DNA of 64,000 nucleotides. It comes from an uncultured Candidatus Nitrosopelagicus sp. GTDB lineage: Archaea > Thermoproteota > Nitrososphaeria > Nitrososphaerales > Nitrosopumilaceae. This document shows, one piece after another, positions 29,981-63,999 of the stretch. The DNA lies in assembly GCA_964511265.1 (NCBI GenBank), contig CAZEES010000003.1, positions 836-64,835 on the forward strand, read 5' to 3'. The number at the start of each line of letters is the position of its first letter. Within the stretch, counting starts at the first letter, position 1. The notes under the pieces are model-generated. The model did no database searches and was not told the DNA's origin. It saw only the letters and a program-made list of their open reading frames with translations. The position numbers and the translations under genes are program-made.

Positions 29981-30054
29981 TGCAGTCAGCGGGATTCGAA
30001 CCCGCGTCACAGGGTTGGAAACCCCGAATACTAACCAGGCTATACTATGACTGC
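29981..30054 (-). tRNA. tRNA-Gly (anticodon TCC), intron-less
   Basis: GCAGTCA acceptor stem, CGGGG-TTTCCAA-CCCTG anticodon arm, GGTTCGAATCC T-arm. Confidence 0.96.
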
Positions 30055-46218: not shown

Positions 46219-48990
46219 TTGAATAAAATTTGGATTCTTCCAGTCATAATATTTTTTTTAGGATTTCCTCTAGCCAGTGCACACCCATTTTTGTTAGATT
46301 CTGAACCAGGACAAGGACAAAATGTGCCAGCAGGCACTACCCAAATCATTACAAATTATTCCGAAGCAGTTGAAATTGATTTTTCTGAATTAAAAGTGTA
46401 TGACGCAAATGGAAATCAGATAGACAATAGAGACACCATGTATAATGACGGAGAGACGTCACTTGTTGTTACAACATCACCCCTTGAAGATGGGGTTTAT
46501 ACAATAACTAGCAAAGTTTTATCAAAAGTTGATGGTCATCTAGTTCAAGCAGCAATAGTTTTCGGAGTTGGAGATGTAAAAATTGATTCATCATTACTAG
46601 AAAAACAACAAAGTTCAGAGACTACATTTATTCCAGAATCAGTTGCTAGATTTCCCGGATTAGTGGGACAAACAATAATTCTTGGAGGAGTAATAGTTTC
46701 AATTACGATCTGGTCATCACAGCAAACTAGATTTAGAGAAGTTTTTAGTGACATAAATGAACAATTCAAAATAAAATTTTCAAAGATTATTGGATATGGA
46801 GTGATTGCTACATTTGCATCAAATTTTATAATGCTTGGAGTTCAGACATGGAGATTAGAAGTTTCACCATTAGATGTTATTGGAACTACATTTGGTACAA
46901 CGTGGCTAATTCGAATGATCATTACCATCATCATTATTGGAATTTGGTTTTGGATGGAAAAGAAAAAAGAGATTACAATGAAAGGACAAATTCCTTTGTT
47001 AGTAGTATCACTAATTTTGATTGCTACAACTACAATGATGGGACATGGAGCATCGACTGAATTACAAGCACCATGGGTTTTGGATTATGCTCACAATTTG
47101 TTGTCATCAATCTGGATTGGCGGAGTGATATTTTTTGCCTTTGTTGTACTCCCCACAATTACAAAAGCTGATAATTCTACGAAAGAGAAAATTGCACTAA
47201 GTTTGATTCCAAGATTTTCAGGATTATTCATCATAGCAATTGGGATTTTAATCATAACAGGCCCAACTTTGCTATGGTTCTTAGATGATAACGTATCATC
47301 CCTTACAGATTCAACATATGGCAAGTTAATTTTAATCAAGATTGGAATTGCCGCCATAATGATAGCGTTTGGCGGATTATACCAAGTGAAGTATTTAGGA
47401 AAGATGAAAGATTTTGAGAAATTAAATATTTCAAGAAAAATTAGCAAGCCACTGAAATTTGAAGCAGGGTTAGGAATTGCATTATTAGCAGTAGTTGCAC
47501 TTTTGGTAAATTCTTCATTGCCTGCTGGAGAGATTCAATCAGCTGATGCGATACAAGGAACGTTTGGTTACGAGTCAGTTTTATTTTCTGAAAATGCAAA
47601 ATTTGATGTTAAAATAGAACCAGCAGGAATTGGTTCAAATACAATTTCAGTTATAGTTTCATCATTTGATGATAAACCGCTTGCAGATATTTCTGGATTG
47701 AAGATCAAAGTTTCAAATCCACAAAAGAACATCTCTCCAATAGGAGCTGAGGTAATTGAGAACGTACAAAATTCAGTCACCAGATATACTGCAGACACAA
47801 CATTTGGATTTGCAGGTAACTGGCAAATTGAGTTAGAAGCTCAAAGAATAGAGACCTCTAATGAAAATGTAATTTTCAACATTCAGATAAAACCATCGCT
47901 AAACGATGTCAGAACAGAGATTACGGAATATGATTTACCTGCAGATGATACTGCACCACTCTTTCCAGTTTATGATGGAAAGAACATTTGGATTTCTGAT
48001 GCACAAAAACCACGTCTATGGAAATTTTCAATAGAAGATGAACAGTTTACATCATACACATTTGATGGAATGACTACAATTTTTATGGACATCGGTAAAG
48101 ATGGGAAGATTTGGTTTACTGACACACCAAATTCAAAAATTGGAAGTTTTGATCCAAAAACTGAGAAATTTGAGACAATCAAATTGCCACAATTTACTTT
48201 GGTGAGTAAAAAATCACTTCCAACCTCAGTTGCAGTCGATAGTGAAGATGATGTTTGGGTTGCAGTCATTGACCGTTCGATAATTTTAGAGTATAACCAA
48301 TCAACTGAGAAATTCAAGATAATGAATACAATCACGCCTGAAGCAGGACCAACTGCATTAGAGATTGATGGTTCAGATAACGTATGGTTTGCCGAATCAC
48401 TGGTAGGAAAACTTGGAAAAATTGATGCAGAAACAAAAGAGATGAGTGAATTTGTTCCACAAACAGAGCCAATGGCAGAACCATTTGCGCTAATGATTGA
48501 TAAAGAAGAAAATATTTGGATTGCGGAGCATATTGGACCTGCAGTAACAAAGTTTAATCCAATCTTAGAAGATTTTCAGAAAGTTCCGATTGCAAATCCA
48601 GAATCATTGCCCTTCGGAATGGCCATTGACAAATATGATAACATGTGGGTAGCACAACACGTCATAGATAGTTTAGTGGTGTATGATCAGAGTAGCGGAC
48701 AGATGACTCAAGTTGCAATACCAACTGAAGGATCATTTACGCAGTTTGTGATTGCAGATGATAATGGAGACATTTGGTTTGTAGAACAACGTGGAGGAAA
48801 ACTTGGTAAAGTTTCAATCAGTGCGGTACCTAGTCAGAGAACAGCAATTCAGGAAGAATCAACTGAAAGTATGATGTATGTTGAATTGGTAGCGCCGATT
48901 ATTGCTGCAGGAATTATTGCCACATCATTATTTTACGTTAAAAGTGTGAGAGATAAGAGAAAAGTTGACGAGATGATCTCCACTAAGTAA
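46219..48990 (+). CDS. CopC-CopD-Ig-like-beta-propeller (Vgb/NHL) fusion, copper uptake/resistance
   Basis: ASA-HPFLLDSEP and DGH (CopC); GHG, HNLLSSIWIGG (CopD); repeated DG.IWFT/DN.W..E blades. Confidence 0.9.
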   Translation: MNKIWILPVIIFFLGFPLASAHPFLLDSEPGQGQNVPAGTTQIITNYSEAVEIDFSELKVYDANGNQIDNRDTMYNDGETSLVVTTSPLEDGVYTITSKVLSKVDGHLVQAAIVFGVGDVKIDSSLLEKQQSSETTFIPESVARFPGLVGQTIILGGVIVSITIWSSQQTRFREVFSDINEQFKIKFSKIIGYGVIATFASNFIMLGVQTWRLEVSPLDVIGTTFGTTWLIRMIITIIIIGIWFWMEKKKEITMKGQIPLLVVSLILIATTTMMGHGASTELQAPWVLDYAHNLLSSIWIGGVIFFAFVVLPTITKADNSTKEKIALSLIPRFSGLFIIAIGILIITGPTLLWFLDDNVSSLTDSTYGKLILIKIGIAAIMIAFGGLYQVKYLGKMKDFEKLNISRKISKPLKFEAGLGIALLAVVALLVNSSLPAGEIQSADAIQGTFGYESVLFSENAKFDVKIEPAGIGSNTISVIVSSFDDKPLADISGLKIKVSNPQKNISPIGAEVIENVQNSVTRYTADTTFGFAGNWQIELEAQRIETSNENVIFNIQIKPSLNDVRTEITEYDLPADDTAPLFPVYDGKNIWISDAQKPRLWKFSIEDEQFTSYTFDGMTTIFMDIGKDGKIWFTDTPNSKIGSFDPKTEKFETIKLPQFTLVSKKSLPTSVAVDSEDDVWVAVIDRSIILEYNQSTEKFKIMNTITPEAGPTALEIDGSDNVWFAESLVGKLGKIDAETKEMSEFVPQTEPMAEPFALMIDKEENIWIAEHIGPAVTKFNPILEDFQKVPIANPESLPFGMAIDKYDNMWVAQHVIDSLVVYDQSSGQMTQVAIPTEGSFTQFVIADDNGDIWFVEQRGGKLGKVSISAVPSQRTAIQEESTESMMYVELVAPIIAAGIIATSLFYVKSVRDKRKVDEMISTK

Positions 48991-49016: not shown

Positions 49017-50567
49017 ATGAAGATCATATTGGGATTATTCTTTGCATTTGTCTTAACATTTTCAATTGGCAGTGCATTTGGTCACGGTGCAGGAATTGAA
49101 GCATCACCACTAGTTTTTACAAATGACAGACAAGTCAAAGTTACAGTAGAATTACTTCCATCAGACTTTTACAAATCTGATCAAAAGATGATAAAAATTG
49201 ATGCCTACGACCATACAAATCGCGAGACAATCACAAATGTTAGTTTCAAAGTTGAAATTTTTAATGAAGGACAATTATTGTTAGATGAATGGTTTTACAC
49301 ACAAGACGGAATTTTAATTTTAGAAGTTGACCCAGAAATAATTCTAGCAGACAAAAACAGTGTTGAGGTTTTTGGAGAGAAGAATGATTTTGGATTATGG
49401 GAGAAAACTGGAGAGTCACCATTAATAATAGCAGGACCAATTTTTGATAAAGGCGGAATATACACATTCAAAATTACACTTGATGCACAAGATGAGGTTG
49501 GAATAATTAGTGATGAAGAATTCGAGGTGCAAGTAAGTGTGACGGATGTATCACATCATCAGGAAACTGTTGGTCAAAAAGAAACAGAATTTAGAGTAAA
49601 ATCCTACTATGATAAGATTAGCAATTTTGAGTATGACGCTAAAAAGAATATAGCGAAGATTAATTTCCCGTTTGACTTTTCCGAGTCAAACATTTCACAT
49701 ACAAGTGTGGTACATACTGAGATAATGTTTCCAAAAAATACACTCGAATTTCTTTCACCAAATTATTCTGGAACGGCAAATAATATTGAATTATTCAAAT
49801 CATCTATCTTCATAGATGATTATTCTGAGGAAGACAATCGAATAGTTCACTTTGTGTTATTGCCAGATCATCTAAGACACATTAAAAATCAGTTAAAAAA
49901 GACAATGGATGAATTACCAAATTCAGTTGAATTAATTCTTAACAAAGGAGAAGAGATAGAATTTCCACTAAGAACTCTAACACTCAGTGAGGAGTATCAA
50001 GTGGATCTAACATGGGACCCAAAAGTAATCACTCCTGGAGAAAGTATTAGATTCATTTACACATTTAGAGATACAACAGATTTAGGACCAATTAGGAATT
50101 CGGATTATACAATTACATTGTTACAAAATGGTCAAACAATTTTTTCTGAAGACAGATTTGCAAAAATTGGTGCGGATTATACCGACTTTACATTTGCAGA
50201 AGGACAAACAGGTTTGACAGTTGCCAGATTTTCAAACATCTCAGGAAGTGGACAACAGACAGAATTTGCATTTGCAGTTGGATTACAAGTAGATTCATCA
50301 TTAGTTCCGGAATGGGTGAAGAACAATGCAGGATGGTGGGCAGACGGTCAGATACCTGACTCGGCATTCATAGATGGAATTGAATTCTTGATAAAAGATG
50401 GAATAATTGTTGTTTCAGATATGCAGCAAAGTGAGTCACAAACAGATGGGATTCCGGAATGGGTGAAGAACAATGCAGGATGGTGGGCAGACGGTCAGAT
50501 ACCTGACTCGGCATTCATAGATGGAATTGAATTCTTGATAAAAGATGGAATAATAAAAATTAGTTAA
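49017..50567 (+). CDS. Secreted surface protein with two identical C-terminal WW modules
   Basis: AFG-HGAG; paralog of 41105-42757. Confidence 0.8.
   Translation: MKIILGLFFAFVLTFSIGSAFGHGAGIEASPLVFTNDRQVKVTVELLPSDFYKSDQKMIKIDAYDHTNRETITNVSFKVEIFNEGQLLLDEWFYTQDGILILEVDPEIILADKNSVEVFGEKNDFGLWEKTGESPLIIAGPIFDKGGIYTFKITLDAQDEVGIISDEEFEVQVSVTDVSHHQETVGQKETEFRVKSYYDKISNFEYDAKKNIAKINFPFDFSESNISHTSVVHTEIMFPKNTLEFLSPNYSGTANNIELFKSSIFIDDYSEEDNRIVHFVLLPDHLRHIKNQLKKTMDELPNSVELILNKGEEIEFPLRTLTLSEEYQVDLTWDPKVITPGESIRFIYTFRDTTDLGPIRNSDYTITLLQNGQTIFSEDRFAKIGADYTDFTFAEGQTGLTVARFSNISGSGQQTEFAFAVGLQVDSSLVPEWVKNNAGWWADGQIPDSAFIDGIEFLIKDGIIVVSDMQQSESQTDGIPEWVKNNAGWWADGQIPDSAFIDGIEFLIKDGIIKIS
50305..50554. repeat. 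Perfect 103-bp direct repeat (50305-50407 and 50452-50554)
   Basis: Base-by-base identity; period 147 bp. Confidence 0.95.
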
Positions 50568-51734: not shown

Positions 51735-52208
51735 ATGGAACAATCCGATTTGATAGTCAGGCGTATCAAAGATGGCACAGTAATTGATCATATCAATGAA
51801 GGAAAAGGTCTCAAAGTACTAGAAGCACTAGAAATTGATGGTAGTCGTGGAAATGTCATAACCATTGCTCTAAACATGCCTAGTGGAAAATTAAAGAAGA
51901 AAGACATGATAAAGGTAGAAGGCAGATTTTTAGAAGATGATGATACTAGTAAACTTGCAGTAATTGCACCATCATCGACTGTGAATATTATCAAGAATTA
52001 CAAATTAGTTGAAAAAAGAAGAGTTTCACTTCCAAATGAGATTGACAGGATTTTTAGATGTTCAAACCCCGATTGTATATCAAATAGCAGTGAACATATG
52101 GATTCAATTATGGATGTTATTGATAAAGAGAATCTAGTTCTGAAATGTAGATATTGTAGTAGAATTTTAGATGTGAATAAAATTAATTACAAAAGACCAA
52201 CAATTTAG
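51735..52208 (+). CDS. pyrI: Aspartate carbamoyltransferase regulatory subunit
   Basis: GTVIDHI, KDMIKVE, CSNPDCIS...CRYC. Confidence 0.96.
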   Translation: MEQSDLIVRRIKDGTVIDHINEGKGLKVLEALEIDGSRGNVITIALNMPSGKLKKKDMIKVEGRFLEDDDTSKLAVIAPSSTVNIIKNYKLVEKRRVSLPNEIDRIFRCSNPDCISNSSEHMDSIMDVIDKENLVLKCRYCSRILDVNKINYKRPTI

Positions 52209-52212
52209 TTAA

Positions 52213-54288
52213 TTACGATTTTTTCTTTTTTACTAAATGTGGTTCTTCAGATTTGTATTGATTTTCAGTGAATCTTCTCATTGAACCGAAGGGTTTGAAT
52301 GCACGTCCATTTCCTTTGTAGAATTTTGAGAAAAACTCCACATAGATCAGTCTAGATCCCTGGATTCCGGGTTCAAACACTCCAATTATTATGTTGAATA
52401 GATGCCCGACAACTAAAATAATCGCTCCAAGAGCTGCCAACGGGAGTCCAATGTTAATTGATTTTAAGAAAATGTAATCAATAGTATGAGCAAGTATTAC
52501 TGACGCAAGTAAGATTCCAACCAGTCGTGTATAAGAAAGAACGTGACTCACAATTGTAGCTAATTCCATTATTGCCATTGGACCTTGTCCAAGTATCATC
52601 ATACCAACACCTCCAAAGATTAACCCATAGTATCCAAATGCCATAGGATTGACTTCAATAAGTCGCGGCCATGTCGGATTAATAGCATCGCCATTGATTA
52701 GAGCTAAACCAAGAAGGACAACTCCCCAAGCAAATGCTAACCAACCAGCTTTTCCAATTGCTTCTTTCTTGTCACCTTCTGCAATACATTGTATAATGCC
52801 AATGATAAGACCAAATGAAACAAAGCCAATTCCAATATAGCCAGCAATTAGCAAAAGTTTACTTGCATCATGAATAGGATCAAGAAATGCCTGTGAGGGT
52901 CGATTTAAGATCTCACCTGGTTCTGGAAAACCAGTAATACCAACACTTGCCAGATAATCAAAAACGTAGCCATTTAGGTGAAAACCAAAGTGTAGATCAA
53001 AGATTACTCCTAAGATTATTCCTATTACACAGCCAGGAATCATTGCTTTTGCCAGTTTTACCATTTGCCGTTTCTTCAAAATATTCAACGCAAAACTACG
53101 TAATGGCTTTGGCATAATATTGAAATTACGTTTTCCTTTCTCTACACGCCTAATTACCCATAAACAAACTAGAAGGATGACAAGACAATAACCAGTATCT
53201 CCAATCATTAGACCATAAAAGACTGGAAAGACTAGTGCGAACACCATAGTTGGATCAAATTCTTTGCTTTGCGGTAATGAATAAAATCGAATGAATGCTT
53301 CAAATAATCTGAATTTTGATGGGTTACTCATTAAAGTTGGAGGCATATCTTCAGTTTTCAGTTTGTAGATGGTTACACTGTCAGTAAATTTTTTTAATGT
53401 TGATTCAATCTGTTCAAGTTTTGATTTTGGAGCCCATCCTTCCATTGCAAATGCATCTTTTGTTGCACCAGAATTTGAAATTACTTCCAATTTTTTATTT
53501 TCAATTTGCAGTTGTTCTTCAATTTCGATTAGAGTGGCATAATGGCTTTCAGAGATTTTAGTTAATTCTTTATTAATCTCATCTAGTCGTTGATTTTCTG
53601 ATTGTAGTTTAGTTTTTAAATCTGTGATAATTTTATTTGGCTTACCATTCAAATTTGGTACAACTTCCATCTTTACATCATGTGTTTGGATAATATTTGC
53701 AAATTTATCTGATGGAATTGAGTTAAAGACTACTAAGATCAAGTGTGTAATTTTTTTTTCAGCCTTTGTGTAAAGCATAATGTCTTTCTTATGCACATCT
53801 ATGGATTTCTTAAACTCCTCAAACTTGTCAGATTGGATTCTACCAAAATATGAGGTTGCAGATGTAAGTTTGAGAATCTTCAGATCTTCAGGAAAGAAGC
53901 TAAACTCCTCGACAAGTTTTAGATTATTCTCAGTATCTTTGATTTGAGTTAGGAGTGATTCTTTTTCCTTTTCAAAATTTGCTACAGATTCATCAATATC
54001 AATTGTACTCGCAATTTGCAAAACTTCATCAACAGAATCAAAGCGCTTTTTAGTAGACATTTTGGTTGAGGGCAATACCGTCAGTAATGCTCTAACACGA
54101 AGTAATTCGTCTGAAACATGTCGAGATAAATCATTATCACGCTCACTCTTTAAAATTGCTGAAATATCTTTTGATAATGGTTCTAATTGTAGAACTTCCA
54201 TATCATGTAAAACAGATACAGTAGTTTGCTGGTTTTTTCGTAGACCCAGAATGGCTATTTTAGACATAGGAACTGGTCTTAGAACCAT
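52213..54288 (-). CDS. atpI: V-type-like ATPase subunit I (a), second operon
   Basis: DPT...FPVFYGLMIGDTGY, SHVLSYTRL, RLIYVEFFSKFYKG.G..F.PF. Confidence 0.95.
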   Translation of the reverse strand: MVLRPVPMSKIAILGLRKNQQTTVSVLHDMEVLQLEPLSKDISAILKSERDNDLSRHVSDELLRVRALLTVLPSTKMSTKKRFDSVDEVLQIASTIDIDESVANFEKEKESLLTQIKDTENNLKLVEEFSFFPEDLKILKLTSATSYFGRIQSDKFEEFKKSIDVHKKDIMLYTKAEKKITHLILVVFNSIPSDKFANIIQTHDVKMEVVPNLNGKPNKIITDLKTKLQSENQRLDEINKELTKISESHYATLIEIEEQLQIENKKLEVISNSGATKDAFAMEGWAPKSKLEQIESTLKKFTDSVTIYKLKTEDMPPTLMSNPSKFRLFEAFIRFYSLPQSKEFDPTMVFALVFPVFYGLMIGDTGYCLVILLVCLWVIRRVEKGKRNFNIMPKPLRSFALNILKKRQMVKLAKAMIPGCVIGIILGVIFDLHFGFHLNGYVFDYLASVGITGFPEPGEILNRPSQAFLDPIHDASKLLLIAGYIGIGFVSFGLIIGIIQCIAEGDKKEAIGKAGWLAFAWGVVLLGLALINGDAINPTWPRLIEVNPMAFGYYGLIFGGVGMMILGQGPMAIMELATIVSHVLSYTRLVGILLASVILAHTIDYIFLKSINIGLPLAALGAIILVVGHLFNIIIGVFEPGIQGSRLIYVEFFSKFYKGNGRAFKPFGSMRRFTENQYKSEEPHLVKKKKS

Positions 54289-54617
54289 TATTCAACACCT
54301 TTTAACAAAATTTCTAGGATTTTCTTACTATTCTGTGCATGAATTTCTGAAGTAATATTTTCAGATTTTGTCTTTGCATCTTCAATGAGAGTAGCTGTTT
54401 GAGAAGTTGCATTATTCCTTGCAGTCTCTATGCTAGAATCAACTAGTTCTTCACCTTGTTGTTTTGCAGATGTAATAGCACTTTCTAGATCAGATTGTAA
54501 TTGATTAATTTCAGACTCAATTTTTTTTCTGTAATCTTCAATTTCTTTTTGTGCATTTTCTTCCACTTTTTTGATTTTTTTCAGTGATTGTAAATAGTGT
54601 TCTTGATTTTCCAACAT
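54288..54617 (-). CDS. atpH: V-type-like ATPase subunit H (G)
   Basis: Coiled coil directly before atpI; SD GGAGGA. Confidence 0.75.
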   Translation of the reverse strand: MLENQEHYLQSLKKIKKVEENAQKEIEDYRKKIESEINQLQSDLESAITSAKQQGEELVDSSIETARNNATSQTATLIEDAKTKSENITSEIHAQNSKKILEILLKGVE

Positions 54618-54748
54618 TATAATCCTCCAATGAAATCCTTTGCGAAGAAGAGTCCTAATCCTAGTGCAATTCCAATGTTTGCCATCTTAATTATTACTTT
54701 AATGTAATAGAATTTTTTTTGCTGTGCATTTGCAAAATCAGTCTGCAA
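54617..54748 (-). CDS. Putative 43-aa membrane microprotein between atpD and atpH
   Basis: TTG start 9 nt after GAGGAGG; TAATG overlap with atpH; hydrophobic C-terminus. Confidence 0.45.
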   Translation of the reverse strand: MQTDFANAQQKKFYYIKVIIKMANIGIALGLGLFFAKDFIGGL

Positions 54749-55394
54749 TTATTTTTTCCTCCTCTTTTTCTCTTTCACCCATCTTTCGTTTTACAGTCTT
54801 AAGCATTGTGAAAGTATCGCGTTCCATTTCTTCCAATCTGAAAGTAATGAATTTTACTGCAGACTGTAAATTAGGAATAAACACATTTTCAATTGCGTTA
54901 GCCTTTCGCTTTGTTTTATCAATTTCGTAAAGAAGTTTACGCAATGTCGTTTCTTTTTCTGCTACATCTAATACAATTTTATGAACTTCTTGAAATGCCT
55001 TCATAGCTTCGCTAATTGATACAGGAATCTCTAAGAGATATTCTGTAAGAGCTTGTTCTCTTGTTCCTCCTTCTAATTTCGGAATACTAACTCCCATGAC
55101 ATTTTTTGGCATAATAAGTAATTTTTTTAGTTGAGGTATCTTCATGGCCTCATTTTCTAATCTCATTTCTCCATCAAGCATCTCTGCCATTCTAATACTT
55201 TGATAGCCTTTTTTCAATTCAGATTGTAATTCACTTCGTAATCGTGATGATGCTTTACTAATGCTGAAAAATTCTAAAATCAATGCTTGGCGTTTTAGTT
55301 TTAATAGCTTCAGTCCTTTCTCTGCAATTTTGATTCGTCTTTTTGCACGCAGATATTCAAGCCGTGTTGGGCGAATATCAGAACCAGATGGAAT
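54738..55394 (-). CDS. atpD: V-type-like ATPase subunit D; non-canonical start
   Basis: Frame extends upstream of the tracked ORF to DIRPTRLEYL...GLKLLKLKR; NVMGV.IP, KTKRKANAIE. Confidence 0.9.
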   Translation of the reverse strand: MPSGSDIRPTRLEYLRAKRRIKIAEKGLKLLKLKRQALILEFFSISKASSRLRSELQSELKKGYQSIRMAEMLDGEMRLENEAMKIPQLKKLLIMPKNVMGVSIPKLEGGTREQALTEYLLEIPVSISEAMKAFQEVHKIVLDVAEKETTLRKLLYEIDKTKRKANAIENVFIPNLQSAVKFITFRLEEMERDTFTMLKTVKRKMGEREKEEEKIIAD

Positions 55395-55399
55395 TTTAA

Positions 55400-56809
55400 T
55401 TACCTCCTGTCATGTGATTTTTTCCACCACTGTGTATCAGATTTAGCATATTTTGCAATAAATTCTGGTTTGATTCTAGTAAGGTCAGATTCATCCAAGT
55501 CACTTAGTAATTCCCATCCTAATGCAAGTGTCTGTTCGATTGTGCGGTTTTCATCTATTCCTTGATTGACAAATTTCTGTTCAAAGTTATTTGCTACATC
55601 AAGGAATTTTCTGTCCAAGTCACTTAATGCACCTTCGCCGACAATAGCAGCTAATGCACGTGCATCTTTTCCTTGTGCATAAGCAGAATAAAGTTGGTCT
55701 GCTAGTTGCCTGTGATCTTCTCTTGTTCGTCCTTCACCTATACCTTGATTCATGAGCCGTGACAAACTTGTTAAAACATCAACTGGCGGTTGAACGTTAT
55801 TTCTATGCAATTCTCTACTCATTACTATCTGACCTTCTGTGATGTATCCAGTAAGATCTGGAATTGGGTGTGTGATGTCGTCAGCTGGCATTGTTAAAAT
55901 TGGCAGTTGTGTAACTGAGCCTTTTCTACCCTTAATTTTTCCTGCACGTTCGTAAATGGAAGCTAAATCTGTGTATAGATAACCAGGATATCCTCTTCGA
56001 CCGGGTACTTCTTCTCTAGCTGCAGAGATTTCTCTTAATGCTTCACAATAATTTGTCATGTCTGTCAAAATTACAAGAACATGCATCTCTTTTTCATATG
56101 CAAGATATTCTGCCGTAGTTAATGCCAATCTTGGAGTAAGAATTCTCTCCATTGAAGGATCAGATGAGAGATTTAGAAACAAAACAGTTCTTTCTAGTGC
56201 ACCACTTTCTTCAAATTGTTTTATGAAAAAGTTTGATTCCTCACTAGTGATTCCTATTGCTGCAAAGACCACAGAAAAGTTTTCTTCGGTTCCAAGAACT
56301 TTTGCTTGTCTTGCAATTTGTGATGCAAGAAGATTGTGTGGTAATCCTGATGCAGACATTATTGGAAGTTTTTGTCCGCGTACCAGAGTATTCATTCCGT
56401 CAATATTTGACACGCCAGTTTGAATGAATTCGGATGGTTCCTCTCTAGAATATGGATTTATTCCCGAGCCTACAAGATCATATTTTTCCTTAGAGATAAT
56501 CTTTGGACCATTATCTCTTGGATTTCCAAGTCCATCAAAAACTCGTCCAAGCATTTCATCAGATACTGCCAATGTTGCTGTTTCTCCAAGAAAAGTTGTT
56601 GAAGTGCCAGTAGTTGTTAAACCAAGTGTTTGACCAAATACCTGAACAATAGCTAGTCCTTGACTAGTATCCAACACTTGACCTTGTCTTCTTTCACCGT
56701 TTGGGAGTTTGATTTCTACCATCTCACCGTATGCTGCATCGTCAACACCTTTTACAAAGATTAATGGTCCTGCCACTTTGTCAAGTGATTTGAATGAGAC
56801 ATTAGTCAT
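55400..56809 (-). CDS. atpB: V-type-like ATPase subunit B
   Basis: [43 protein letters not shown]; start MTNVSF. Confidence 0.96.
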
Positions 56810-58571
56810 TACCAGAAGCCTCCACAGATAGACTGCCAAATTCAGTTTTCATGGTAGATTTAATGTTATCAAGTAATTGTTCAAGCTCATCTTCTTTTGT
56901 CCATTTCATTTTTGGAATCATTTTTCTAGATTCAAGGGAGCTGATTTTTGCTGCAGTAATTCCTTTCTTTATACTTTCATCTGCTTTTTTACCAAATTCT
57001 ATTATGGTAGATAGCATTTCTGATTGTTTCTTAATTGATGTGTAAGTATCAACTTCATCAAAGGAATTTTGTTGTAAATAATCTTCTCTAATTGAACGAG
57101 CAGTATCTAAGATGCCTTTTTCTGGTTCAGGTAGTGCATCGTAACCAACTAGCTGCACAATTTCTTGCAGTTCTGATTCTTTTTGTAAGATATCAAGTGC
57201 GGTAGTTCTATTATCTATCCACTCCTTTGAAACATTGGTTCTGTACCAATCAGCCAAGTCATCAACATACAGTGAGTAGCTAGTTAACCAATTGATTGAT
57301 GGGAAATGTCTTCTAGATGCAAGACTAGCATCAAGTCCCCAGAATACACGTGTTACCCTCAATGTGTTTTGTGAAACAGGCTCGGAAAAGTCTCCGCCAG
57401 GTGGTGAAACTGCACCCACTAGAGATAAAGAACCTTGACGGTTTTCAGGAGAAATAACAATACTTTTTCCTCCACGCTCATAGAATTCAGCTAATCTTCT
57501 TCCCAGATATGCAGGATATCCTTCTTCTCCGGGCATTTCCTCTAATCTGCCTGAGATTTCTCTTAATGCTTCTGCCCATCTTGAAGTACTATCAGCCATC
57601 AATGCAACACCATATCCCATGTCACGATAATATTCACCCATTGTAATTCCAGTGTAGACACTTGCTTCTCTTGCTGCTACTGGCATGTTACTTGTATTTG
57701 CAACTAGTATAGTTCGTTCCATTAGAGGTCTCTTTGTTTTTGGATCTTCTAATTTTGGAAATGATGAAAGAACATCACACATTTCATTTCCTCTTTCTCC
57801 ACAACCAACATAGACAATTACTTCACTGTCTGCCCATTTTGCAAGTTGTTGTTGAGTAACTGTTTTTCCACTTCCAAAAGGACCAGGTATAGCAGCGGTT
57901 CCACCTTTTGCAACTGGGAAAAATGTATCAATTACTCGTTGACCTGTAAGTAGTGGCTCTTCTGGAGGAAGTTTTCGAAGTACTGGTCTTGGAATTCTAA
58001 CAGTCCACCAACTTGATAATCCAACATCTGTTGTTTTTCCATTCTTTACAGATGCAATGTTTTCATTTACGTTGAATTGTCCTTCTGATATATCTCCAAG
58101 AGTTCCAGAGATGTTATGTGGGATCATAATTTTGTGTTTGATTAATGGTGTTTCTTGAACTTCACCAATAATATCACCAGGTTCAACTTGATCACCATTC
58201 TTCTTAGTTGGAATGAATTCCCATTTTTTTGTCTGATCTAATGCAGGGATAACTTTTCCTCTACTAATGAAATCTCCACTTTCTTTTTGTAAGACATCTA
58301 ATGGTCTTTGAATGCCGTCATAGATAGACGTCAATAATCCAGGACCTAATTGTAATGAAAGTGGTTTATTCGTATTGACGACTTTCTCGCCTGGTTTAAG
58401 ACCAGTTGTATCTTCATAAACCTGAATCATTGCACTGTTTCCTTCTAGACGAATAATTTCACCAACAAGACCCATTTCACCAATACGTACAATATCAAAA
58501 AGTTGAGCACCATCAAGATCTTTAGCTACTACAACAGGACCAGAAATTCTTGCAACAGTTGAGTCTACCAT
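56802..58571 (-). CDS. atpA: V-type-like ATPase subunit A (catalytic)
   Basis: GPFGSGKT P-loop, [19 protein letters not shown]; no intein. Confidence 0.97.
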
Positions 58572-58578
58572 GATTTCA

Positions 58579-58929
58579 TCAACTTACCTCAATCTTAATC
58601 CCGAGTATTCGCTTTGCTAATGCAGCGATTGACTCTTCTTCTTTACTTTCCTTTTGAGATGGCATAAACAAAACTAATGGTTCAATTGATTCTTCGATGC
58701 TTGACAAAAATGTTGTGGGGAGACTTGAACGGACAGAATCACTTGCTATGATCAAGCCAAATTCTCCAGATGAATAGAGTTCTTGAATTTTTTTACTTGC
58801 TTCATCATCATCTACAATGAAAGTGTCATCAATTCCAATTAGACGATAACCGATAACGAGTTCACGATCTCCAACTATTGCTAATTTGCCAGAAGCATCT
58901 GAGATTTGTTTTGAAAGTTGCTCACTCAA
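58579..58929 (-). CDS. atpF: V-type-like ATPase subunit F
   Basis: AIVGDRELVIGYRLIGI, ILGIKI. Confidence 0.9.
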   Translation of the reverse strand: MSEQLSKQISDASGKLAIVGDRELVIGYRLIGIDDTFIVDDDEASKKIQELYSSGEFGLIIASDSVRSSLPTTFLSSIEESIEPLVLFMPSQKESKEEESIAALAKRILGIKIEVS

Positions 58930-59990
58930 ATCAAAAGCATCTCCTTAATTTTATCTAATGATAGATCATAACGTTTTCCATACGTTATTCTTTTTAGATT
59001 TTCATATTCATATTCGGCATGAAAAATGAAATAGAAAATTGTACCTATCGATAATGCTATGTTTCTTAGTTTTTTGACATAATTTGTGTTGATTAGTTTT
59101 GTAAGCTCTATTTCAAAAATTATCAAACTGTTTTCGGTTTTATATTGTTCAAGTGCTTCGTTTAGTTTGTAGTATGATTCTATTCTTCCGACAATTTCTG
59201 CAACATCTTTAGTTTCGTAAATATCAAGTAATTCTTTTGCAGGTATTCTTCCAATGTCTATCAGGTGTTCAGATAAAATTTCTTTGCCAATGTTTGACTC
59301 TTTTGCTTTTAGTAAATTTAGAATATTTTTCTTGTCAATTTCTGCACGAATCAATTCTCTAATGACACCTTCATCCCCTTGAAAAAATTTTAGAGATTCT
59401 AAGAGTTTTTGATAGTATGCTTCATGTATTGCAGACATCATTGGTCCTAGATCACCTGTCTTTTGATAATCATCTAGATGCTTCATTAGTATTGCACCAT
59501 AATCATATTTTGCAAGCTTGTTTACAACTCCTTCAACACTTGTTTCAGATAGAATAATTTTGATTTCATCATGAGGAATTACGCCTGCTTCAATTCCTGC
59601 TGGCACATTTCTACTAGAGACTAACAGTGATTCAGTTTCAGTAATTGTTCTACCCATCATTTTTGAAGAAAGAATTAACTCAATGTTGTAGAGATCCCAT
59701 TTTGAAAGAAAAGTTCTTACTGCATTTTTTCCACTAAATGGAACTGCTTCTAAAATGATTTTATTTGTTTCAACAAGATGACGATTGAAAGCTACTTCCA
59801 AAAGTTCTGCACCACTAAACGTTGATGCTGCTTTTTTGATCTCTTGACCATACCATGTAGATTCCAATTGCTTTGTCATATCATTGATATCATTTGCCTT
59901 GAGAAGATTTTGTAAGACATCTTCAGATAAAAAATTAATTGAGATTGATTGCAGTCGCCCAAATGAAGATGAGTATTGCGATGTACCCAT
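58926..59990 (-). CDS. atpC: V-type-like ATPase subunit C (d)
   Basis: WDLYNIELIL, AEIDKKNI, AEYEYENLKRI. Confidence 0.88.
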   Translation of the reverse strand: MGTSQYSSSFGRLQSISINFLSEDVLQNLLKANDINDMTKQLESTWYGQEIKKAASTFSGAELLEVAFNRHLVETNKIILEAVPFSGKNAVRTFLSKWDLYNIELILSSKMMGRTITETESLLVSSRNVPAGIEAGVIPHDEIKIILSETSVEGVVNKLAKYDYGAILMKHLDDYQKTGDLGPMMSAIHEAYYQKLLESLKFFQGDEGVIRELIRAEIDKKNILNLLKAKESNIGKEILSEHLIDIGRIPAKELLDIYETKDVAEIVGRIESYYKLNEALEQYKTENSLIIFEIELTKLINTNYVKKLRNIALSIGTIFYFIFHAEYEYENLKRITYGKRYDLSLDKIKEMLLI

Positions 59991-60547
59991 TATAAAATCT
60001 CCTCAAGAATTGAGGTTTTGATCTCGTCTTCGTTGTTTCGTAATAATTCTTCAAAAGTTAAATCAAGTTCTTTGGTTCCATCACTATTTTCAGCAACAAT
60101 TCCTCCTAGTGTTTGGATTGTAGAACCAAGTGTAACATCAGAATCATTGAAGAGTGATTTATCCTCTTCTTTAAAATGAATTGTGATGTTTTCTCCTAGA
60201 GCATTTTTTGAAGTTTTGATCATCTTTTCTAAGACATTTTTGTATTCTGGATTTTTGGTATATTTTTCAAGATCTTTTTTTATAATTTCAAATGTTGAAT
60301 CTAGGTTTTTGTTGATTGCATCAAATAAGATTTTCTTAGCTTCTAATTTTCCTCCTTCAAGAATTCGAGCTTCCTCTCTATCAGATCTTGATTTTGCTTC
60401 TTTCTCATAATTATCTTTGAGTTCTTGAATTACAGTATTTTTTTTGTCTTCAATCTCAGATTTTTTATCATTTAATTCCTTTTCTAGCGTACTCATGTCA
60501 CTTTTTTTTCTACTTTCTATTTCTTGTATGAAAATCTCGATACTCAT
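59990..60547 (-). CDS. atpE: V-type-like ATPase subunit E
   Basis: N-terminal coiled coil, LGGIVAENSDG..ELDLTFE. Confidence 0.88.
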   Translation of the reverse strand: MSIEIFIQEIESRKKSDMSTLEKELNDKKSEIEDKKNTVIQELKDNYEKEAKSRSDREEARILEGGKLEAKKILFDAINKNLDSTFEIIKKDLEKYTKNPEYKNVLEKMIKTSKNALGENITIHFKEEDKSLFNDSDVTLGSTIQTLGGIVAENSDGTKELDLTFEELLRNNEDEIKTSILEEIL

Positions 60548-60556
60548 GAGATTCTC

Positions 60557-60898
60557 CTACAAGATATCTAGCAAGAGAATTATTCCCAGAACGAATCCAA
60601 TTATCCAAAGTGTTTCAGGAATAACAAAGAAGAATAAGACCTGACCAAATTTCTCTGGTTTTTCAGCTATAATTCCCATACCTGCTGCACCTATTCCTTG
60701 TTGTGCATTACCAGTTCCGATAAGACCTCCTGCTATGGCAATTGCTGCGGCTAATGCCAGAATTGGTTTTGTTAGATCTCCACCAGTAGAACCTTCTGCT
60801 GCAAATACTTCAGTTGGAGAGAAAACGGTAAATAGTAAAAGTACTCCTCCAAATACCCCAATCCCTACTCGGGAAGATTTGGAAAGTGAAAACATCAC
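60557..60898 (-). CDS. atpK: V-type-like ATPase proteolipid K (c), single hairpin with signal peptide
   Basis: AQQGIGAAGMG.IAEKPE...IPETLWIIG. Confidence 0.93.
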   Translation of the reverse strand: MMFSLSKSSRVGIGVFGGVLLLFTVFSPTEVFAAEGSTGGDLTKPILALAAAIAIAGGLIGTGNAQQGIGAAGMGIIAEKPEKFGQVLFFFVIPETLWIIGFVLGIILLLDIL

Positions 60899-60917
60899 TT
60901 TGAGGATCCAGTTGATC

Positions 60918-60923
60918 TTTATA
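60918..60923 (-). promoter_or_regulatory. TATA box of the second ATPase operon
   Basis: TATAAA 20-25 nt upstream of the GTG/ATG of atpK, consistent with a leaderless first gene. Confidence 0.55.
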
Positions 60924-61038
60924 GGAATTATCTTCCCTGAAAAATTTAAAAATATGTTTCAACATAATGATTGTTTAGAAAAAATTTCGATAAAATAGCG
61001 ATCAGAATAAAATAAAAATTTAAAAAATTTCTCTGTGA

Positions 61039-61377
61039 TTATTGTCCTAATATAATGAACATCATTACGATACCATAGATAGCAATTGATTCTACCATTC
61101 CGATAAAGATGAACACTTTAGACTGTAATGCTGGGTTTTCAGTAATTACTGCTAAACCTGCAGAACCGACATAACCTAAACCAATTCCTGCACCCATTGC
61201 TGCAAGTCCAAATGCAAGTCCTGCACCGATTAGTTTTGATCCATCGGACAATCCTCCTGCTGGCGATGCCTCTTCTGCAAATGCAACAGTGCCTAAGCCT
61301 GAAACAGAAACTGCAAGAGTCGCAAGTAGTAAAATTGAGAGTGGTTTCATTTTCATTTTTTGAAATCTAGAGACCAT
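61039..61377 (-). CDS. atpK: A-type ATP synthase proteolipid K (c), native operon
   Basis: GAGIGLGYVGSA...ENP...MVESIAIYG. Confidence 0.94.
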   Translation of the reverse strand: MVSRFQKMKMKPLSILLLATLAVSVSGLGTVAFAEEASPAGGLSDGSKLIGAGLAFGLAAMGAGIGLGYVGSAGLAVITENPALQSKVFIFIGMVESIAIYGIVMMFIILGQ

Positions 61378-61400
61378 ATTTAAACCAACACCTAATTTTA

Positions 61401-61532
61401 TCAGATCTGATCCAGAGTTTTCTTTTTTGCAGATTTTAATTGATCTTTAATTGTTTTTGCAGAATTTTCATATTCTTGATCTAAAGTTTTTTTAGATTTT
61501 TCAAGTAGTCTTTTTATTTCATCTTTTGCCAT
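61401..61532 (-). CDS. 43-aa charged coiled-coil microprotein (not in ORF track)
   Basis: MAKDEIKRLLEKSKKTLDQEYENSAKTIKDQLKSAKKKTLDQI; ATG abuts atpD stop. Confidence 0.65.
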   Translation of the reverse strand: MAKDEIKRLLEKSKKTLDQEYENSAKTIKDQLKSAKKKTLDQI

Positions 61533-62165
61533 TTACTGTCTTTTCTCCATTGAAGCTTTCACTTTTTTTAACCTTGCGAATTCTTCTCTTTCTCTTTCTT
61601 CTAATGTTGCTAGTATAAATCGAACTCTTTGTTTGTATTGAGGAATGATGACATTTTCCAAGGCGTTTAGTAGTTTTTGCGTCTTTTCAAGTGCTTTTGC
61701 GAGACTAAATATTGAATTTTCAAATTCAGCGGCCTTGCAGATCTTTGGAAGTAAATCTTTGATTAGTTTTGCACCACGATCAATAGATGCATTGGTATCT
61801 GCAAATCCATATGGAATTGATTTTGTATCTTTTTCAGTAACGCTTAACACAGGAATAGTTACATCAACTACACGTTTTACATCAGAATCTACCTCCATAA
61901 CACCAGGGGTTGATTGTGCTACAGAATCAACTGTTCCTACTCCTAGAGATAGGTATGATTCGTTAACTGATTGGTAGATTTCCTGTAAAGGTTCCCAAAT
62001 TCCACCTCTAGTTTTTTGTGCTTCAGTAATCATTTCTTCAATATTTTTTAGTAAAACTTTACGTTTGTCATCTAGAATTTTTTGTACCATTGAAGCAACT
62101 TGGTTAGAACGTTTGTATTTGAACAACTCAATTTTTGTTGCTGTGACGTTTTGTCCAAATGACAT
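61533..62165 (-). CDS. atpD: A-type ATP synthase subunit D
   Basis: TATKIEL, ILDDKRKVL, LNALENVIIP. Confidence 0.93.
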   Translation of the reverse strand: MSFGQNVTATKIELFKYKRSNQVASMVQKILDDKRKVLLKNIEEMITEAQKTRGGIWEPLQEIYQSVNESYLSLGVGTVDSVAQSTPGVMEVDSDVKRVVDVTIPVLSVTEKDTKSIPYGFADTNASIDRGAKLIKDLLPKICKAAEFENSIFSLAKALEKTQKLLNALENVIIPQYKQRVRFILATLEEREREEFARLKKVKASMEKRQ

Positions 62166-62170
62166 TAGAA

Positions 62171-63553
62171 TTATTCCTTGTAGTATTGTTCTACGTATTT
62201 GTCTTTAACTTTGGTTAATTCATTCTTTGGAAGTTTAGAGACACAGTTCCATTGTAATCCTAATGTTTCTTCAATTGTTCTATCTTCGTCAATTGCTTGT
62301 GACAAGAATTTCTTTTCAAATTCATCACCAAAATTCATGTAATTAAGATCAACAGGGGTTAGTCCTGCTTTTCCCACGATTCCTGCAAGGGCTCTAACTT
62401 CCTGAGCACGGGAATATGCATCATAGTTTTGATTAGATATTTCCTGATGATCAGCACGTGTACTTCCTTCACCAATTCCATCTTTCATGATTCTGCTAAG
62501 GCTCATCAAGATGTTGATAGGTGGATAAACTCCTTGTCTAAATAAATCTCGTCCAAGTACAAGTTGTCCTTCTGTAATGTATCCAGTAAGGTCTGGAATT
62601 GGATGTGTGATATCATCAGATGGCATGGTTAGGATTGGCATTTGAGTTACACTTCCTTTTTTACCTCTTAGTCTTCCTGCTCGTTCATAAATTGTAGAAA
62701 GATCAGTGTAAAGATAGCCAGGATAGCCTTTTCTTCCTGGTACTTCCTCTCGTGCAGCACTAATTTCACGAAGTGCTTCAGCATAGTTTGTCATATCAGT
62801 TAGAATAACGAGTACGTGCATTCCCAAGTCATATGCAAGATATTCTGCCACAGTTAATGCCACTCTAGGTGTGATAATTCTCTCAATTGCAGGATCGTCT
62901 GCAAGATTCAAAAATAGTACACTTCTTTTTAGTGCACCAGATTCTTCTAAACTTCTTTTGAAATATTCTGCTTCGCTGTATTGCACACCAATTGCTGCAA
63001 AGACTACAGCAAACTCATCTTTTGTTCCAACAATTGCTGCTTGACGTGCAATTTGTGCGGCCAAGATATTATGTGACATACCAGAGCCGGAAAATATTGG
63101 GAGTTTTTGTCCTCTTACCAAAGTGAGCATTCCATCAATTACAGAAACGCCTGTTTGGATGAAATCTTTTGGATATTCTCTTTGTTCAGGATTCATTGGT
63201 GCTCCGTTAATATCTAAAAATGATGTTGCAACTGGCTCTGGAAGACCGTCTTTTGCTCTTCCTAATCCATCAAAAACTCTACCTAGTACTTGTTCTGATA
63301 CTGGCATCTCCATAACTTTGCCAACAAATTTTGCATTTGTTCCAGAAACAGAAAGACCTGTTGTACCTTCAAAGACCTGAACAACTGCTTTACCATTTCC
63401 AACCTCTAAGACTTTTCCTAAACGTTTTTCACCTTCAGTTGTTTCAATTTCTACTAGCTCATCAAATGCTGCATTTTCAACACCGTCAACAATTACAAGT
63501 GGTCCTTTGATTTCAGCAATCTTGCTGTATTGAACTCCGCCTTGAGTGGTCAA
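62171..63553 (-). CDS. atpB: A-type ATP synthase subunit B
   Basis: [40 protein letters not shown]. Confidence 0.96.
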
Positions 63554-63999
63554 TTTTGAACCTTTACTCCCGTAACAGTTTTGAATTGTTCTGCCATGTC
63601 AGTTTGGATCTTATCTAATTTATCCATCTCATCATCTTTTACATCCATTCTTGCTTTAAGCAAAGATGAGACTACGTCCATGGAACGAATGTCAGCTAAT
63701 GCTGCGCCGTCTTTGAGTGCTTGTTGACCTTGATTGTAAAAGTCAACTTGTAATTTCATTAATTTGAATTGTTTTTCAGGGCTGCAATAAGTATCGACAT
63801 CATCAAAGGAGTTTTGTTGTAAGATTCCAATCTTAATCATTCTTGCAACTTCTAAGATTAGTTTTTCTTCGTCTGGAAGTGCTTCTGGTCCTAGCAGTTT
63901 AACGATTTCTTTTAGTGTGTCTTCTCTTTGTAGGATTCCGTATGTTTCACTTCGTATGTTTAGCCACTGATCACTGATGTTTTCTGACCACCATTTTGC
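63550..63999 (-). CDS. atpA: A-type ATP synthase subunit A, C-terminal part (runs off window)
   Basis: Frame open to window edge: ...[43 protein letters not shown]. Confidence 0.93.

Follow-up and report, generated by a model that had tools for sequence, protein, structure and literature searches.

The stretch of DNA analysed here (hereafter the window: 64,000 nucleotides of contig CAZEES010000003.1, from an uncultured Candidatus Nitrosopelagicus sp.) carries two rotary ATPase operons head to tail on the same strand, namely the tail of an A-type operon and, directly behind it, a complete V-type-like operon of nine genes. A first-pass annotation made from the letters alone had described the second operon as inserted behind the native one. 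Our analysis suggests a different history. The two operons are probably a long-resident, anciently inherited tandem pair, of which the V-type member was lost in Candidatus Nitrosopelagicus brevis and the A-type member in the WCB clade. The term "inserted" is not supported as history, in view of three observations: the composition of the V-type operon is native, A-type and V-type genes have co-diverged, and N. brevis branches inside dual-operon lineages.

The V-type operon is intact and reads K-E-C-F-A-B-D-H-I on the minus strand (60898-52213). It lies behind the A-type atpK (61377-61039, same strand) and before the convergent pyrI. Its open reading frames (ORFs) are tightly packed or overlapping, and subunits were named by Pfam and NCBIfam profile matches. 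With the suffix 1 for A-type and 2 for V-type genes, the order of the whole locus is sulfT, I1 (opposite strand), E1-A1-B1-D1-K1, K2-E2-C2-F2-A2-B2-D2-H2-I2, pyrI, pyrB. The features are as follows.

60898 (GTG) or 60895 (ATG) to 60557, minus strand: atpK2, c-ring proteolipid (Pfam ATP-synt_C), aligning with Thermus thermophilus K and Enterococcus hirae NtpK
60547-59990, minus strand: atpE2, peripheral stalk (Pfam vATP-synt_E; NCBIfam V-type subunit E)
59990-58926, minus strand: atpC2, d/C subunit, rotor coupling (Pfam vATP-synt_AC39, E = 1e-53)
58929-58579, minus strand: atpF2, central stalk (Pfam ATP-synt_F)
58571-56802, minus strand: atpA2, catalytic subunit without intein (four Pfam domains; NCBIfam TIGR01043, 936 bits)
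56809-55400, minus strand: atpB2, non-catalytic subunit (Pfam), whose ATG at 56809 overlaps the end of A2
55394-54738, minus strand: atpD2, central stalk (Pfam ATP-synt_D), with an ATT start at 55394-55392
54617-54288, minus strand: atpH2 (H/G), peripheral stalk (sub-threshold matches to V-ATPase_G and NCBIfam subunit H)
54288-52213, minus strand: atpI2, membrane a-subunit (Pfam V_ATPase_I), with Arg588
61039-63999, minus strand: tail of the A-type operon, with the C-terminus of A1 (running off the window end), B1, D1, a 43-aa ORF and K1 (Pfam)
63553-62171, minus strand: B1 of the A-type operon (Pfam)
62165-61533, minus strand: D1 of the A-type operon (Pfam)
61377-61039, minus strand: K1 of the A-type operon (Pfam)
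61027-61006, minus strand: T-rich tract after the atpK1 stop, likely an archaeal terminator
60917-60955, minus strand: putative promoter of the V-type operon, composed of CTATAAAG at 60924-60917 and an AT-rich element at 60955-60939
51735-52208, plus strand: pyrI, the conserved convergent flank (Pfam PyrI), its stop 4 nt from the I2 stop
51706-50777: pyrB, beyond pyrI

The junction of the two operons is found well beyond this one assembly. Words sampled from the K1-K2 spacer are present at 96-100% in 15 public DNA runs from five studies. Single Logan contigs span the spacer in four DNA runs of four studies, at 53-447x word depth; three of them are without difference from the window spacer and one has a single difference. 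The tandem arrangement occurs in at least seven other public assemblies. A metagenome contig of JGI (L081) has the same order and is 95.8% identical over 17.2 kb, and its upstream part carries a rhodanese gene (sulfT), I1 on the opposite strand, and E1. The same tandem order is seen in several ENA contigs (A2 identity 89% and 94%), in the single-cell genome AH-558-D10 and in a metagenome-assembled genome (MAG). An artefact in which A-type and V-type populations were joined at a conserved flank could be imagined, as A-type-only and V-type-only populations co-occur in seawater and have the pyrI flank in common. Yet single contigs from four studies cross the spacer at high depth with at most one difference, and the independent JGI contig, ENA contigs, single-cell genome and MAG agree in order. 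We therefore regard the probability of such an artefact as negligible, and the chimeric assembly that the first-pass annotation had named as a concern was looked for and not found. On the other hand, reading the junction as the record of an insertion is not supported. The arrangement is not unique, but is present in other assemblies, in the NP-iota lineage and in Nitrosomirales.

The A-type and flanking genes of the window are closest to Candidatus Nitrosopelagicus brevis CN25, with protein identities of 97% for B1, 96.7% for D1, 93% for pyrB and 87% for a CopCD-domain gene (46219-48990). Nucleotide identity to CN25 is 81-89% over 21 kb and 88.9% in the A-type tail. We take the host to be a pelagic archaeon of the genus Nitrosopelagicus (WCA clade), sister to N. 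brevis. The gene order is the same in CN25 and in two environmental relatives, except that pyrI follows K1 after 25 nt. Alignment blocks with CN25 stop at window position 61004 and restart at 52178, so that 61003-52179 is missing there. The difference between the two genomes is exactly the 8.8-kb V-type operon plus its promoter region. The T-rich tract after atpK1 is the last sequence in common with N. brevis before this difference. No recognisable remnant of the V-type operon is seen in the K1-pyrI spacer of N. brevis, which has only this terminator tract of K1 in common with the window. The last 8-9 residues of pyrI differ between the window and N. brevis.

Whether this difference reflects a gain or a loss may be judged from composition, trees and divergence. 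The operon has a GC content of 0.351 as compared to 0.346 in the rest of the window, and a GC content at third codon positions of 0.220 as compared to 0.221. Its codon-usage distance is 0.389 (null 0.348 +/- 0.072), and its tetranucleotide correlation is 0.972 (null mean 0.976). In GC, third-position GC, relative synonymous codon usage and tetranucleotides, the operon thus does not depart from the null distribution of the window. The two borders of the operon have no direct or inverted repeat of at least 10 nt in common; with shuffled sequence, a common 10-mer arises in 167 of 500 trials, and border repeats are not above chance. The immediately flanking genes examined, atpK1 and pyrI being the neighbours, include no mobile-element gene. 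The absence of a transposase or obvious attachment repeats, which the first-pass annotation had remarked upon, is hence reproduced at the borders. Two usual marks of a recently acquired genomic island are therefore lacking: composition is native, and no border repeats, integrase, transposase or tRNA accompany the operon. The only tRNA of the window is at 29981-30054, and the window has no rRNA (Rfam).

Trees were built by neighbour-joining with 200 bootstraps, from query-anchored alignments and with simple distance corrections. In the A-type (B, D, K) tree and in the pyrB tree, the CN25 group joins the window group with a bootstrap of 100. A second dual-operon clade (AH-558-D10, binchicken_co46_296 and ENA contigs) lies outside this pair. 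The V-type K-to-H tree displays the same relation between the two dual-operon clades, again with a bootstrap of 100. Because CN25 branches inside dual-operon lineages, the pattern of presence and absence is better read as a loss in N. brevis.

Divergence points in the same direction. With L081 representing the window lineage for I1, E1 and A1 (which lie outside the window or are cut off by it), protein identities to AH-558-D10 for A-type and V-type paralogues are 93 and 91% for A, 94 and 96% for B, 89 and 95% for D, 90 and 84% for K, and 68 and 70% for E. Identities at four-fold sites are 81/79% for A1/B1 and 79/76% for A2/B2 between L081 and L089, 61/59% and 56/55% between L081 and L001 (AH-558-D10), and 78/76% and 78/72% between L001 and L086. 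CN25 lies between these depths, with 74/72% for A1/B1. In three pairs of dual-operon genomes, then, A-type and V-type genes agree in how far they have diverged, in protein sequence as well as at synonymous sites. Had the V-type operon been transferred later, its divergence would be the lower one; as the V-type genes are not less diverged than the A-type genes, such a transfer is disfavoured.

These results bear directly on the possibility that the operon was acquired after the split from N. brevis, by homologous recombination from another pelagic archaeon that used atpK1 and pyrI as anchors, the donor being an AH-558-D10-like clade or a relative of WCB. N. brevis lacks the V-type operon, as such an event would have it, and repeated in-situ replacement of operons between the same flanks has been proposed (Wang et al., 2019; PMC6863869). 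Furthermore, recombination does act at this locus, since a WCB-like contig is the closest relative of atpI2 and of the 3′ half of pyrI (see below). However, V-type divergence to each possible donor clade equals or exceeds A-type divergence, in proteins as well as at four-fold sites. The V-type K-to-H tree agrees in topology with those of the A-type genes and of pyrB, composition is fully native, and there is no scar or repeat. We consider a recent acquisition distinctly unlikely.

The gene atpI2 is the exception to the agreement of the K-to-H tree with the A-type and pyrB trees among close relatives. Over K2 to H2, the AH-558-D10 clade is the closest to the window, and exactly at the H2/I2 border the nearest relative changes. 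The identity of I2 is 83% to the WCB-like contig L003 and 78% to WCB, but only 65% to AH-558-D10. In the tree of I2, L003 and the window group fall together within the WCB side, with a bootstrap of 100. The 3′ half of pyrI tends the same way, L003 rather than CN25 being its nearer relative. The gene of the stator and ion channel has therefore undergone homologous recombination between pelagic lineages. In WCB genomes (L004-L007) a conserved spacer of about 180-220 nt separates atpI2 and pyrI (e.g. L004 16372-16553), whereas the window clade has only 4 nt between the two stops. The WCB spacer could be a small ORF or an RNA.

Several points weigh against an old, jointly inherited pair. By its tree position atpI2 did move between lineages, as perhaps did the 3′ half of pyrI; with recombination active at the locus, the whole operon could in principle have moved in this way. 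The sister relation of the V-type clade to WCB is supported by a bootstrap of only 67-69%. The trees are neighbour-joining trees with simple distances only, four-fold sites are partly saturated in the deeper comparisons, and species relationships were judged from genes near the locus only. In public metatranscriptomes, the depth of Logan contigs is similar for both operons, for pyrB and for the spacer, which may be due to DNA carry-over.

Deeper lineages also carry both operons at the locus, namely NP-iota (in the same order), MAG B2D1T2 and three groundwater (nzgw) MAGs (V-type operon beyond pyrBI), and their V-type, A-type and pyrBI trees broadly agree. In B2D1T2 (L010 503-7517) the A-type module as a whole (I1 / E1-A1-B1-D1-K1) has the reverse orientation with respect to the V-type operon. 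In L052, L056 and L057 the V-type operon lies beyond pyrI-pyrB and the 516-aa gene (see below). Several rearrangements have therefore taken place at the locus.

Based on this dataset, we regard the following course of events as the likeliest. The V-type operon would have entered ammonia oxidisers long ago from a Thermoplasmatales-like source, a step that is taken from the literature and with which our data are consistent. The tandem pair of A-type and V-type operons, between the sulfurtransferase gene and pyrI, would have been in place in the ancestor of the Nitrosopelagicus clade and probably earlier, and the two operons would have been inherited together since that common ancestor. The V-type operon would have disappeared cleanly from surface lineages of the N. 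brevis type, and the A-type operon from WCB. The a-subunit gene and the adjacent end of pyrI would also have been replaced, by homologous recombination between pelagic lineages.

We give an even chance to the broader idea that the split between A-type shallow WCA and V-type deep WCB reflects reciprocal loss from a tandem ancestor, rather than repeated horizontal replacement. Marine ammonia oxidisers are among the most abundant cells of the ocean, and the type of their ATPase is used as a marker of depth adaptation. If reciprocal loss holds, the window and its relatives would be surviving intermediates inside the WCA/Nitrosopelagicus clade, N. brevis would be a derived surface lineage that lost its V-type operon, and dual-operon pelagic archaea would be a distinct and abundant ecotype. 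For this clade, the evolutionary model moves away from repeated horizontal operon transfer with precise in-situ replacement; our data favour two operons long in tandem, followed by differential loss and by homologous recombination at the locus. A dual-operon sister of N. brevis, which is without exactly these 8.8 kb, provides a clean natural comparison for the role of the second enzyme and for the depth at which it is of advantage.

As to the type of the second operon, the best match of A2 among 1.84 billion cluster representatives is the intein-bearing A subunit of Picrophilus (Thermoplasmatales). In Picrophilus, the genes are arranged as K-E-C-F-A-B-D-(106 aa)-I, as in the window, with atpH2 in the same operon slot as the 106-aa ORF. 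The order K-E-C-F-A-B-D-H/G-I is also found in 80 loci of ammonia-oxidising archaea (AOA). Nearness to Thermoplasmatales was judged by identities and bit scores. Identities to Picrophilus, given for the V-type and the A-type paralogue, are 57 and 53% for A, 65 and 53% for B, 40 and 26% for D, and 36 and 27% for I. The bit scores of subunit I are 399 and 102, respectively, and the mature core of K2 is 92% identical to the Picrophilus c-subunit. Throughout, the V-type subunit is closer to Picrophilus than the A-type paralogue. By these measures, the second operon is confirmed as a V-type-like rotary ATPase operon of the Thermoplasmatales type.

Head-to-tail operons on one strand may also call to mind a recent tandem duplication of the resident operon. 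Such an event is ruled out by the paralogue identities between A-type and V-type genes, which are 58% for B, 28% for D, 31% for K and 38% for the A C-terminus. In addition, gene content and order differ, and the V-type set is nearer to Picrophilus than to the A-type set. Much of the first-pass annotation is accordingly borne out: a complete nine-gene operon between the native atpK and pyrI (nine ORFs with profile matches, weak for H), clearly divergent B, D and K paralogues, a Thermoplasma-like affinity and a gene order identical to that of Thermoplasmatales. Grouping of both sets as a recent duplication, which it had asked to be considered, was not observed (paralogues are only 28-58% identical).

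The V-type operon is preceded by the TATA-like element CTATAAAG, 20-27 nt upstream of the K2 start. Both this element and the AT-rich element are kept in L001 and L002. In other V-type operons the corresponding position, equally far upstream of atpK, is occupied by a conserved TTAATATAG. The pattern fits a promoter of its own and a leaderless or short-leader mRNA. The TATA box reported by the first-pass annotation can thus be retained as a putative promoter, read from sequence, whose position is kept in relatives.

Some gene starts differ from those of the automatic ORF list. The start of atpB2 is probably the ATG at 56809, as homologues are called at 469 aa; the listed TTG would be 10 codons too long. 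The list cuts atpD2 short, for its TTG at 55283 would drop 26 positions of the ATP-synt_D profile. No ATG, GTG or TTG gives a full-length protein, but an ATT (55394-55392) lies 7 nt after GGAGGT (55407-55402), just past the atpB2 stop, at a position where other lineages have ATG, TTG, GTG or CTG. Because this ATT is kept in six diverged dual-operon genomes (D2 protein identity 93-100%), we take it to be a true non-canonical start and not an error. It is kept across the whole dual-operon Nitrosopelagicus clade.

Between atpD1 and atpK1, on the minus strand (61401-61532), lies a hydrophilic 43-aa ORF, MAKDEIKRLLEKSKKTLDQEYENSAKTIKDQLKSAKKKTLDQI. Its length is constant and its sequence conserved in all A-type operons that were examined, those of N. 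brevis, NP-iota and groundwater MAGs included, and it is without Pfam or NCBIfam match. It could be a small unrecognised stalk subunit of the A-type ATPase of AOA; no H/G homologue is reported in that operon. In both c-subunits, a signal-like N-terminal leader of about 40 aa (60778-60898 and 61255-61377, minus strand) terminates in ...FA(A)E(E/G). Picrophilus K has no such leader, and the T. thermophilus subunit has a similar one. In its leader, the V-type c-subunit therefore resembles the A-type subunit of the host. A further conserved ORF of 516 aa next to pyrB (49017-50567) is present in N. brevis and relatives, lacks a Pfam domain, and contains an internal direct repeat (50305-50554; unit about 103 nt, period about 147 nt).

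By sequence, all parts of a working enzyme are present and under purifying selection. Essential residues are kept, among them the P-loop GPFGSGKT at residue 230 of A2, Arg588 in I2 (SYTRLV) and E95 in K2. Residues Q66, E95 and T96 of K2 align with Q110, E139 and T64 of the sodium site in E. hirae NtpK. Of the five sodium ligands of NtpK (L61, T64, Q65, Q110, E139), four are present in K2, and the position of Q65 is occupied by leucine. The same set of Q, E, T and L is found in the c-subunits of T. thermophilus and Picrophilus. The T. thermophilus enzyme is proton-coupled, and Picrophilus lives on a very large proton gradient. Because its ion site has the same set as these two, the V-type-like enzyme is more likely to be proton-coupled.

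A sodium-coupled second enzyme, either a sodium pump or a sodium-driven synthase, would agree with the match of Q66, E95 and T96 to the NtpK site. Sodium versus proton coupling has been inferred for the two ATPase sets of hadal AOA (Zhong et al., 2020; PMC7265257), and possible sodium coupling is mentioned elsewhere (Zheng et al., 2024; PMC10811736). On the other hand, the fifth ligand is a leucine in K2, the ion-site set is that of T. thermophilus and of Picrophilus, whose c core is 92% identical, and an AOA V-type operon increased the acid tolerance of Escherichia coli (Wang et al., 2019; PMC6863869). On balance we consider sodium coupling unlikely, although not far-fetched.

The V-type enzyme may operate alongside the A-type synthase. 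It could use ATP to pump protons and so keep the cytoplasmic pH stable, or it could be a second synthase whose properties differ. The idea of ATP-driven ion pumping as an adaptation to pressure or pH, which the first-pass annotation put forward, comes from earlier work (Wang et al., 2019; PMC6863869). Such an operon is acid-induced in transcription in N. oleophilus, raised acid tolerance when expressed in E. coli, and has been proposed to extrude protons under high pressure in AOA (Wang et al., 2019; PMC6863869). In lineages where it is the only ATPase, the V-type enzyme must also make ATP. The A-type genes of the window lean towards two-fold codons ending in C (ATC, TAC, AAC), with a value of 0.795 at about the 93rd percentile of the null, whereas matched V-type genes are at the null mean (0.515). 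This codon bias is not significant, and gives a weak hint that the A-type enzyme may be more highly expressed.

Among known systems, the Picrophilus atp operon resembles that of the window in its K-E-C-F-A-B-D-H-I order and in the c core (92% identical), B (65%) and A (57-64%). It differs in that its A subunit has an intein, its K is without the 40-aa leader, its flanking genes are unrelated, and its stalk and a-subunits are only 26-40% identical to those of the window. Another counterpart is the V-type operon of acidophilic and deep-sea AOA (Wang et al., 2019; PMC6863869), as in Nitrosotalea devanaterra and in single-cell genomes of WCB. It has nine genes in the same order, subunits A and B that are 81-85% and 84-91% identical to those of the window, an I2 that converges on pyrI, and a TATA-like element equally far from atpK. 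The flanks that characterise the V-type locus of Nitrosopumilales are present here too, with pyrI/pyrB in the window and the rhodanese gene upstream of the A-type operon in L081. Unlike those operons, that of the window coexists with a complete A-type operon directly upstream, in a close relative of N. brevis, its atpD starts with ATT instead of ATG or TTG, and its promoter element is CTATAAAG instead of TTAATATAG. The same study described the N. brevis clade as A-type only, and reported a "very clear separation" of WCA (A-type) and WCB (V-type) (Wang et al., 2019; PMC6863869).

That some AOA keep both types, as the first-pass annotation had mentioned, is in line with the tandem operons described for two other lineages. 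Sediment MAGs of NP-iota have adjacent operons with sulfT and pyrI/pyrB flanks (Kerou et al., 2021; PMC8397731 supplement), L041 being in the same order, and in MAGs of Nitrosomirales A-type and V-type operons are likewise adjacent (Zheng et al., 2024; PMC10811736). For AOA ATPases, an ancestral acquisition followed by selective loss has been proposed (Kerou et al., 2021; PMC8397731 supplement). Unlike the window's host, these are sediment or subsurface lineages, and their B1 and B2 are both only 86% identical to those of the window. The hadopelagic Nitrosopumilus-like AOA MTA1 also has both types per genome, and a role in high-pressure adaptation has been proposed for such dual ATPases (Zhong et al., 2020; PMC7265257; Wang et al., 2019). 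In MTA1, however, the V-type operon is reported from a different place in the genome, next to unique neighbours, and has been interpreted as acquired recently and independently, whereas that of the window stands in tandem at a conserved locus and has co-diverged with its flanks. In the literature, of which our coverage is incomplete, we found no report of both operons in Nitrosopelagicus/WCA. What is new is not a kind of system, but a pelagic Nitrosopelagicus lineage that possesses both operons and is sister to the cultured, A-type-only N. brevis. To the known cases it adds a close presence/absence pair with N. brevis, evidence of co-inheritance, a recombinant a-subunit gene and the ATT start of atpD.

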